43,800 nt of DNA from Escherichia coli (GTDB lineage Bacteria > Pseudomonadota > Gammaproteobacteria > Enterobacterales > Enterobacteriaceae): assembly GCF_003334315.1 (NCBI RefSeq), contig NZ_QOWR01000040.1, one strand, 5' to 3'. This document shows, in pieces, positions 10,410 to 10,892 of the stretch. A model generated the notes under the pieces. It made no database searches, was not told the DNA's origin, and was given only the letters and a program-made list of their open reading frames with translations. A program made the position numbers and the translations under genes. How positions within the stretch are numbered: position 1 is the first letter of the stretch; the number at the start of each line of letters is the position of its first letter.

Positions 10410-10484
10410 TGGCTGGGGTACGAGGATTCGAACCTCGGAATGCCGGAATCAGAATCCGGTGCCTTACCGCTTGGCGATACCCCA
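10410..10484 (-). tRNA. glnV: tRNA-Gln (anticodon CUG)
   Basis: Reverse complement is TGGGGTATCGCCAAGCGGTAAGGCACCGGATTCTGATTCCGG...CCAGCCA; anticodon loop reads CUG; 75 nt. Confidence 0.95.
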
Positions 10485-10531
10485 ACAAATTGGTTTTGAA
10501 TTTGCCGAACATATTCGACACATTCAGAATT

Positions 10532-10608
10532 TGGTGGCTACGACGGGATTCGAACCTGTGACCCCATCATTATGAGTGATGTGCTCTAACCAACTGAGCT
10601 ACGTAGCC
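10532..10608 (-). tRNA. metU: tRNA-Met elongator (anticodon CAU)
   Basis: Reverse complement is GGCTACGTAGCTCAGTTGGTTAGAGCACATCACTCATAATGATGGGG...; 77 nt. Confidence 0.95.
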
Positions 10609-10623
10609 AGATTGTTTCTTCGA

Positions 10624-10698
10624 TGGCTGGGGTACCTGGATTCGAACCAGGGAATGCCGGTATCAAAAACCGGTGCCTTACCGCTTGGCGATACCCCA
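10624..10698 (-). tRNA. glnU: tRNA-Gln (anticodon UUG)
   Basis: As the Gln tRNA above but anticodon loop CCGGTTTTTGATACCGG; 75 nt. Confidence 0.95.
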
Positions 10699-10721
10699 TC
10701 CGTACAACGCTTTCTGGTGAA

Positions 10722-10806
10722 TGGTGCGGGAGGCGAGACTTGAACTCGCACACCTTGCGGCGCCAGAACCTAAATCTGGTGCGTCTACCAATTTCGCCAC
10801 TCCCGC
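10722..10806 (-). tRNA. leuW: tRNA-Leu (anticodon UAG)
   Basis: Reverse complement is GCGGGAGTGGCGAAATTGGTAGACGCACCAGATTTAGGTTCTGG... with long variable arm; 85 nt. Confidence 0.95.
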
Positions 10807-10815
10807 AAAAAAAGA

Positions 10816-10892
10816 TGGTGGCTACGACGGGATTCGAACCTGTGACCCCATCATTATGAGTGATGTGCTCTAACCAACTGAGCTACGTAGCC
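10816..10892 (-). tRNA. metT: tRNA-Met elongator (anticodon CAU), first gene of the operon
   Basis: Identical to the tRNA-Met at 10532-10608. Confidence 0.95.

Follow-up and report, generated by a model that had tools for sequence, protein, structure and literature searches.

The window, a 43.8-kb stretch of DNA that makes up the entire contig QOWR01000040.1 of the draft assembly GCA_003334315.1, carries the metT tRNA operon, a well-known feature of E. coli, in a form that lacks one copy of each of its duplicated glutamine tRNA genes. The resulting count of five genes is most likely not that of the chromosome; we read it as a seven-gene locus that was collapsed by a short-read de Bruijn assembler working at k=77. 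Both candidate causes of such a reduction, namely recombination or slippage between tandem duplicates and the collapse of a repeat during k-mer assembly, are textbook processes, the operon itself is known, and the locus represents no new kind of system. It is reportedly the 'supB-E' seven-tRNA operon of Nakajima, Ozeki and Shimura, 1981.

A five-gene metT operon between ubiF and asnB

ARAGORN, run over the whole window, returned five tRNA genes, all on the minus strand between positions 10410 and 10892, and the Rfam tRNA model, also applied to the whole window, matched the same five sites and none elsewhere (Table 1). Read 5' to 3' in the direction of transcription, the array is Met(CAU)-Leu(UAG)-Gln(UUG)-Met(CAU)-Gln(CUG). 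An earlier note on this DNA had described five genes in just this order, and its count of one Gln(UUG) and one Gln(CUG) is borne out by both programs.

The identity of the operon follows from its position, its gene order and its boundaries. According to the annotation of the window's relatives, ubiF and asnB are its immediate neighbors, one on each side; the array is convergent with ubiF, and the window is colinear with K-12. Gene order and sequence identity are likewise those of the K-12 metT operon, with a single Gln(UUG) and a single Gln(CUG) gene where K-12 has two of each. Consensus scans predict one promoter ahead of metT and, past the final Gln gene, a rho-independent terminator. The site of the sigma-70-like promoter, upstream of metT, suits the operon. 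The canonical complement of seven genes, with each Gln isoacceptor doubled, is reduced to five in the contig.

Table 1. Features of the five-gene array and of the contig ends, in window coordinates
Feature	Coordinates	Strand	Evidence or remark
Left contig end, 77 nt of an IS150 terminus interrupting gltL	1..77		Identical to the IS150 end of REL606
Intrinsic terminator, 11-pair stem then T-run, directly past the last tRNA	10379..10404	-	Terminator scan
tRNA-Gln(CUG), single	10410..10484	-	ARAGORN; Rfam; 75/75 identical to glnV and glnX
77-nt stretch that is the exact direct repeat glnV/glnX in seven-gene genomes	10410..10486		Period 112 nt; the absent 112-bp unit would join at a point within it
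tRNA-Met(CAU), metU	10532..10608	-	ARAGORN; Rfam; K-12 comparison
77-nt stretch that is the exact direct repeat glnU/glnW in seven-gene genomes	10622..10698		Period 109 nt in K-12 and ST12468; the absent 109-bp unit would join at a point within it
tRNA-Gln(UUG), single	10624..10698	-	ARAGORN; Rfam; 75/75 identical to glnU and glnW
tRNA-Leu(UAG), leuW	10722..10806	-	ARAGORN; Rfam; 85/85 identical to K-12 leuW
tRNA-Met(CAU), elongator, metT, first in the operon	10816..10892	-	ARAGORN; Rfam RF00005, 71.1 bits; 77/77 identical to K-12 metT/metU
Sigma-70-like promoter, TTGACG/17-nt spacer/CATAAT, 10/12 matches	10933..10961	-	Promoter scan, consensus match only
Right contig end, inside rhsC, 77 nt exactly common to rhsA and rhsB	43724..43800		K-12 comparison

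Exactly two repeat periods are absent

At the ubiF/asnB locus, K-12 MG1655 and REL606 each carry the metT operon with seven genes, and the earlier note was right that K-12 has each Gln isoacceptor in tandem duplicate. All five tRNAs of the window are 100% identical to their K-12 counterparts, and the four spacers that are kept equal those of K-12 but for a SNP between metU and glnV. Past the last tRNA, a stretch of 155 nt that includes the terminator is identical to the sequence downstream of K-12 glnX. The first absent unit consists of a 75-nt Gln(UUG) gene and the 34-nt glnU–glnW spacer (TCTTCTTCGAGTAAGCGGTTCACCGCCCGGTTAT), 109 bp together; the second consists of a 75-nt Gln(CUG) gene and the 37-nt glnV–glnX spacer (ATTTATTCAAGACGCTTACCTTGTAAGTGCACCCAGT), 112 bp together. 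The window's array is the seven-gene array minus exactly these two units, with no other structural difference from K-12, and no 16-mer of either missing spacer was found anywhere in the window. In all other respects, that is in site, strand, order, gene sequences, promoter region and terminator, the K-12 operon is like that of the window; it differs only in possessing both copies of each tandem Gln duplicate together with the spacers between them.

The single Gln(UUG) gene combines the upstream spacer of glnU (the 23-nt leuW–glnU spacer) with the downstream spacer of glnW (the 15-nt glnW–metU spacer). In the same way, the single Gln(CUG) gene has the 47-nt metU–glnV spacer, which is the upstream spacer of glnV, on its 5' side, and the terminator that lies downstream of glnX on its 3' side. 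Each absent unit is exactly one repeat period, and the spacers on both sides are intact. One period lost, a junction inside the repeat and unchanged flanks are what defines a deletion allele, and assembly collapse predicts the same. The earlier note had proposed either loss by recombination or collapse during assembly, and this is the right pair of alternatives for units of one repeat period each.

A real double deletion would mean that the strain truly has five genes. The 109-bp Gln(UUG) unit and the 112-bp Gln(CUG) unit would have been lost in separate events, by unequal homologous recombination or by replication slippage or sister-strand misalignment between 77-bp perfect direct repeats, and the operon would stay functional. 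The loss of exactly one period in each case, with processing contexts, promoter and terminator intact, is in keeping with this scenario, which we regard as a serious possibility without expecting it to be the case.

Contig ends and a k=77 graph of the locus

In K-12 and in ST12468, the nearest complete relative of the window, the maximal exact repeats of the operon measure 77 nt in both Gln pairs, glnU/glnW and glnV/glnX, and 78 nt in the Met pair, metT/metU. The last of these persists in the window, where metU and one flanking base form a 78-nt exact repeat with metT, the sole repeat of at least 77 nt inside the contig.

The same length recurs at the ends of the contig. On the left, uninterrupted gltL homology begins at base 78, and the same IS150–gltL junction is present in 44 genomes. 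On the right, the contig shares an exact suffix of 77 nt and no more with each of the K-12 paralogues rhsA and rhsB, the last distinguishing base being 43723. Both ends halt after exactly 77 nt of multi-copy DNA, as is characteristic of a de Bruijn assembler run at k=77, and the contig thus has the character of a short-read k-mer assembly that ends at repeats. For 150-nt reads, the largest default k of SPAdes is 77. Set against its relatives, the contig is free of homopolymer indels and of other marks of a defective consensus, a point that counts for a real deletion and against a collapse.

We built a k=77 graph from the seven-gene locus of ST12468. It contains four branching vertices, with a 112-nt self-loop on the Gln(CUG) 77-mer and a 109-nt self-loop on the Gln(UUG) 77-mer, and a 1-nt edge for the Met repeat. 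Each Gln pair forms a self-loop at this k because the pair shares an exact 77-nt repeat; the Gln self-loops exist only at k<=77, and from k>=79 the locus graph is free of branches. When both self-loops are left out, the resulting walk equals positions 9001-12460 of the window base for base. Repeats of length k flank the two absent units; the unit between the Met repeats, which are one nucleotide longer (k+1, 78 nt), is kept and its loop traversed. As expected of a collapse, the absent units are bounded by repeats of at least k and would be resolved at larger k. A real double deletion gives no reason why units bounded by k-length repeats should be lost while the k+1 unit survives.

We envision that the assembler, meeting each Gln pair as one vertex with a self-loop, would have followed a path straight through both vertices, which would yield exactly this contig; that it did take this walk is what we infer. 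Paired-end distances would hardly separate a loop traversed once from a loop skipped, because ~110 nt lies within the usual spread of insert sizes. The skipped loops would come out as fragments of 186 nt (the 109-nt loop) and 189 nt (the 112-nt loop), which would have been left under the GenBank minimum contig size of 200 nt. In the self-loops that repeats of exactly k=77 form at this locus, in a loop-skipping walk equal to the contig and in the k-length overlaps at both ends, the window resembles known de Bruijn tandem-repeat collapse. The graph result speaks for feasibility and is not proof, because a real deletion between the same repeats gives an identical sequence. The shortest walk through the whole tangle retains only Met and Gln(CUG), with a ubiF–asnB spacing of 732 nt, which is that of the MC1061 record. 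Where a small tangle stays unresolved, SPAdes links its entry to its exit along the shortest path; combined with the insert-size spread, this would give just the five-gene contig observed.

Seven genes in the nearest complete relative

ST12468 shows zero mismatches over positions 78-25000 of the window and carries seven genes, and this SNP-free relationship over 25 kb argues for a collapse: a double deletion would require two independent rare events within a lineage that has otherwise gathered no SNP relative to its seven-gene relatives. HS30-1, also closely related, has one Gln(UUG) gene, and a degenerate remnant stands between its two Gln(CUG) genes; its single Gln(UUG) counts in favor of a real loss and against a collapse. 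Among 5,426 complete E. coli genomes, a set that excludes the window's own, the best 25-kb matches are seven-gene genomes or HS30-1, and start at base 78. Of the best 30 genomes listed, 26 span 221-222 bp beyond the query, which is the seven-gene length. SpeF S201F is private to the window in comparison with ST12468 and HS30-1. This protein variant is encoded on QOWR01000040.1, a contig of exactly 43,800 nt whose stored portion agrees with positions 22090-43800 of the window in every base. ETEC1730 and WI2, both of which have six genes, were also considered as close relatives and were rejected on comparison with the window.

We also measured the ubiF–asnB spacing in 10 sampled contigs with the same UbiF, nine of which have the seven-gene and one the six-gene length. 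The sample is made up mostly of long-read assemblies or of DA-prefixed accessions, which we take to be NCBI-generated SKESA drafts, and it therefore says little about k=77 assemblies. Several contigs with SPAdes-style NODE_ names, encountered in the species survey described below, do carry seven genes. Draft and SPAdes-named contigs thus often keep both tandem pairs, so that collapse is not the default outcome, and the predominance of seven genes in the sampled drafts stands against a collapse in the window.

Logan contigs identical to the window elsewhere were found for SRR1122540 (over 14.3 kb, positions 29171-43450) and SRR3951468 (over 8.0 kb, positions 29171-37155). Two spurious ORFs specific to collapsed or deleted arrays were sought as a way to Logan contigs that cross the junctions, and neither is on record. 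Metagenome contigs scanned for the leuW–glnU spacer together with Gln(UUG) gave two matches only, both cut at the array.

Single-copy glutamine junctions among complete genomes

To count reduced arrays in the 5,426 complete genomes, we searched with queries that span the junctions and set E-value limits such that a match had to be uninterrupted and full-length to pass. Between leuW and metU, 71 genomes have just one Gln(UUG) gene; ahead of the terminator, past metU, 138 have just one Gln(CUG) gene. Both junctions are combined in 20, and any single-copy Gln junction is present in 189 (3.5%). By arithmetic, 7 of the 20 double-junction genomes have 11-gene arrays of the form (Met-Leu-Gln(UUG))x3-Met-Gln(CUG) with a 284-bp period, an arrangement confirmed directly in TUM2805 and GF8. 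The five-gene array of the window is accordingly present in about 13 complete genomes (at most 0.24%), including an FDA-ARGOS reference genome.

These occurrences in finished genomes, both of the two single-copy states and of the exact five-gene array, are evidence for a real deletion and against a collapse, although the double state is rare and partly batch-linked. A 25-kb comparison of the window and six complete five-gene genomes distinguished at least five local haplotypes. Two of these are common to a pair of five-gene genomes from different countries and laboratories, namely FDAARGOS_1077 with STK39-3-E and ECCTRSRTH03 with CEA106S. Both the number of haplotypes and the two pairs favor real deletions; the pairs are weak evidence of inheritance, because the haplotypes may be common in the collection, that of ECCTRSRTH03 and CEA106S being K-12-like. 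We considered the related pairs as decisive proof of inheritance and rejected that reading, since one of the two haplotypes at least resembles that of K-12 and is probably widespread in the collection.

Single-UUG and single-CUG states are found together in 20 genomes, where 1.8 would be expected (~11-fold; Fisher p=2e-16). This excess points to a shared cause, and it fits a technical one. Given the 11-fold co-occurrence and the several haplotypes, it could also be argued that the array is real and that the joint loss of both Gln isoacceptor copies is no coincidence, a combination that we consider unlikely.

Single Gln(UUG) genes are also found in the complete records of laboratory K-12 derivatives, namely ME8067, MG1655p and Origami2-DE3. 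Tandem repeats of such length and spacing are expected to undergo RecA-independent deletion at appreciable rates. Together, these points lend some plausibility to a mixed culture, in which seven-gene and deleted chromosomes would be present side by side and the assembler would have reported the shorter allele. Both Gln loci would need to be polymorphic at once, however, and the laboratory-strain records may themselves be assembly errors, so that we rate a mixed culture as highly improbable; even when it is pooled with all other causes, the chance is hardly greater and remains very small.

Reliability of public assemblies at the locus

The weight of the complete genomes depends on how well the locus is assembled in them. 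The gene leuW is wholly absent in 12 of the 5,426 RefSeq 'complete' E. coli genomes. The records of MC1061 (CP195014.1) and GF47 contain only Met and Gln(CUG), the ST648 record only Met-Leu-Gln(CUG), and that of IAL7250 only Met-Gln(CUG)x2. Experiments have shown the metT transcription unit to be essential; no copy of tRNA-Gln(UUG) or tRNA-Leu(UAG) is encoded outside it, and in E. coli K-12 MG1655 it contains the full set of Gln tRNA genes (PMC11480407). The arrays of these four records cannot be real, because they would leave the cell without its sole tRNA-Gln(UUG) genes, its sole tRNA-Leu(UAG) gene, or both. With 12 leuW-less genomes, the locus is misassembled about as often as the five-gene array occurs, and this near-equality of impossible and five-gene records tells against the double deletion.

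Variant arrays also cluster by sequencing project. The 20 double-junction genomes include 8 GF, 3 AVS and 2 STK genomes, and the GF, AVS and STK records are Swiss in every record opened. For one of the AVS genomes, AVS0096, a hybrid assembly with Unicycler is documented (PMC8340865).

The operon in other species and in related systems

A survey of Enterobacterales species with identical leuW yielded 86 complete arrays. Seven genes are present in 40 of them, two UUG genes and one CUG gene in 21, and one UUG gene and two CUG genes in 10. The exact five-gene form occurs in 1 of the 86, that of the insect symbiont Ca. Symbiopectobacterium endolongispinus. The six- and eight-gene forms of other Enterobacterales are the same operon and differ only in the number of tandem Gln genes. 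Two UUG genes with one CUG gene are found in Photorhabdus, Xenorhabdus, Pectobacterium and Brenneria, and one UUG gene with two CUG genes in Erwinia and Kosakonia; these forms are probably real because the patterns are uniform within genera. Genus-consistent variation of this kind lends support to a real loss in the window. Its scale is different, however: the other forms vary between species, whereas the window's form differs from that of SNP-free relatives and has both Gln pairs reduced at once.

A seven-gene array is also present in E. albertii, and Salmonella LT2 has the same seven-gene operon (PMC5400242). Seven genes in K-12, REL606, E. albertii, LT2 and 40 of the 86 surveyed arrays indicate that this is the ancestral state of E. 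coli. The reverse polarity, with five genes ancestral and the K-12 array a derived duplication, is conceivable as a matter of logic and nothing more. It is refuted by the distribution across species and strains: to the seven-gene genomes just named, ST12468 can be added, a single-copy Gln junction is confined to 189 of the 5,426 complete genomes, and the window's haplotype is otherwise a seven-gene one. We therefore rejected it.

An experimental precedent exists for recombination within this operon. The Salmonella plasmid pUST314 is a spontaneous metT x metU recombinant from which leuW-glnU-glnW was deleted (PMC5400242). It shares with the putative deletion in the window a recombination between identical tRNA genes inside the metT operon, and to that extent supports it; it differs in that it is a multicopy plasmid, was under selection against excess tRNA-Gln(UUG) and made use of the Met repeats. 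In Pseudomonas fluorescens SBW25, tRNA gene copy number is reported to be flexible by duplication (PMC7661048, PMC10954465). There, as would be the case in the window, recombination between repeats is reported to alter tRNA gene dosage; the SBW25 events are large duplications that raise copy number in laboratory populations, first seen after a tRNA gene deletion, whereas the window would have lost ~110 bp per event and is not known to have been under selection for this.

Implications for glutamine tRNA dosage

If the five-gene array is an artefact, which we judge the likelier case, its message is one of caution, as tRNA counts taken from draft and even from hybrid 'complete' assemblies would be unreliable at this locus. 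The earlier note had held that the copy number of these Gln tRNAs affects glutamine codon decoding and the supE locus. That statement holds only if the deletion is real, and the gene concerned needs to be specified, as supE44 sits in the downstream copy, glnX, and not in glnV (PMC4444293, PMC11148124).

If the deletion is real, the strain would have one gene per glutamine tRNA, and CAA and CAG would each be decoded from half the gene dosage. The strain would also lack a spare copy able to mutate into a supE- or supB-type suppressor; because supE44 maps to glnX, a true single-copy strain would be without the spare Gln(CUG) gene from which such a suppressor arises. This would be a modest, strain-level point. 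Should the joint loss of both copies moreover be more than coincidence, it may reflect selection for a balanced dosage of tRNA-Gln, or for a lower supply of Gln-tRNA in some niches, and the operon would then be a locus whose copy number switches fast, its arrays comprising 4, 5, 6, 7 or 11 genes.

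Variant metT arrays in finished genomes

Several chromosomes deposited in RefSeq as "complete" (MC1061 CP195014.1, GF47, ST648 and IAL7250) carry metT arrays without tRNA-Gln(UUG) and/or tRNA-Leu(UAG), and leuW is absent from 12 of the 5,426 complete E. coli genomes in the ecoli_genomes collection. Since arrays deprived of these tRNA genes are biologically impossible, the metT arrays of these four chromosomes are assembly errors in finished genomes. In the same collection, 20 genomes show the single-copy state for both Gln(UUG) and Gln(CUG), where 1.8 would be expected (Fisher p=2e-16). 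Variant arrays cluster in a few sequencing projects, namely the GF, AVS and STK series from Switzerland and the TUM series from Japan.

Expanded arrays are found as well. Seven "complete" genomes from three projects (a number reached by arithmetic, with the layout verified in TUM2805 and GF8) hold an 11-gene array arranged as (Met-Leu-Gln(UUG))x3-Met-Gln(CUG), with a period of 284 bp and exactly three units every time. These arrays could be true amplifications, which would make good the loss of the Gln(UUG) copy, or they could reflect a graph-loop mis-count.

In HS30-1, a close relative of the window's strain with a single Gln(UUG) gene, two intact Gln(CUG) genes are separated by a 140-nt spacer that holds a further, 66-nt copy of tRNA-Gln(CUG). 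This copy is heavily mutated and has a 9-nt gap, with its final 19 nt intact; the usual 37-nt spacer lies on both sides of it, the upstream spacer copy being altered at its penultimate base. The 66-nt copy represents a pseudogene or else an error in the sequence.

Features located in the window and in related genomes
Feature	Location	Strand	Remark
IS150, terminal 77 nt	window 1-77		inserted in gltL; contig start
gltL fragment	window 78-434		adjoins IS150 end
sRNA sroC	window 1860-2022	-	Rfam match, 174.8 bits; gltI-gltJ spacer
ES036/CssrF	window 13218-13260	+	Rfam match, 41.1 bits, barely over threshold; asnB-umpH (nagD) spacer
140-nt spacer between two intact Gln(CUG) genes	HS30-1 (L004) 33678-33817
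11-gene array	TUM2805 (L008) 925-1853
11-gene array	GF8 (L139) 1404-2329

Insertion sequences and other differences from relatives

The IS150 copy that interrupts gltL at the left contig end sits exactly where the E. coli B lineage carries one; 44 genomes, BL21 and REL606 among them, have an insertion at this site. Yet in its first ~10 kb the window diverges from REL606 by about 1.0-1.6% (50 mismatches in 3,172 nt, then 68 in 7,161 nt, these being aligned lengths with gaps counted in), and between 78 and 10486 it shows zero mismatches to ST12468, its nearest complete relative. Either one insertion site has been used twice, or the insertion was transferred through recombination.

IS5D, the K-12 copy of IS5 in the gltI-lnt interval, is absent from the window (~3026-3030), and so is the rhomboid-family protease gene that stands in its place in REL606 and some other strains. 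The asnB-umpH (nagD) spacer also contains REP-like repeats.

From 78 to 33686, the only differences between the window and ST12468 are the two tRNA units and a 10-bp indel between fldA and ybfE (25308-25317). The indel sequence, TTGAAACTTA, belongs to a short direct repeat. At 33687, a nonsynonymous substitution in speF codon 201 (SpeF S201F) is private to the window when compared with ST12468 and HS30-1. The same substitution is present in Logan contigs of SRR1122540 and SRR3951468, where 14.3 kb and 8.0 kb, respectively, are identical to the window. SpeF S201F is a useful marker for reads of the window's strain.
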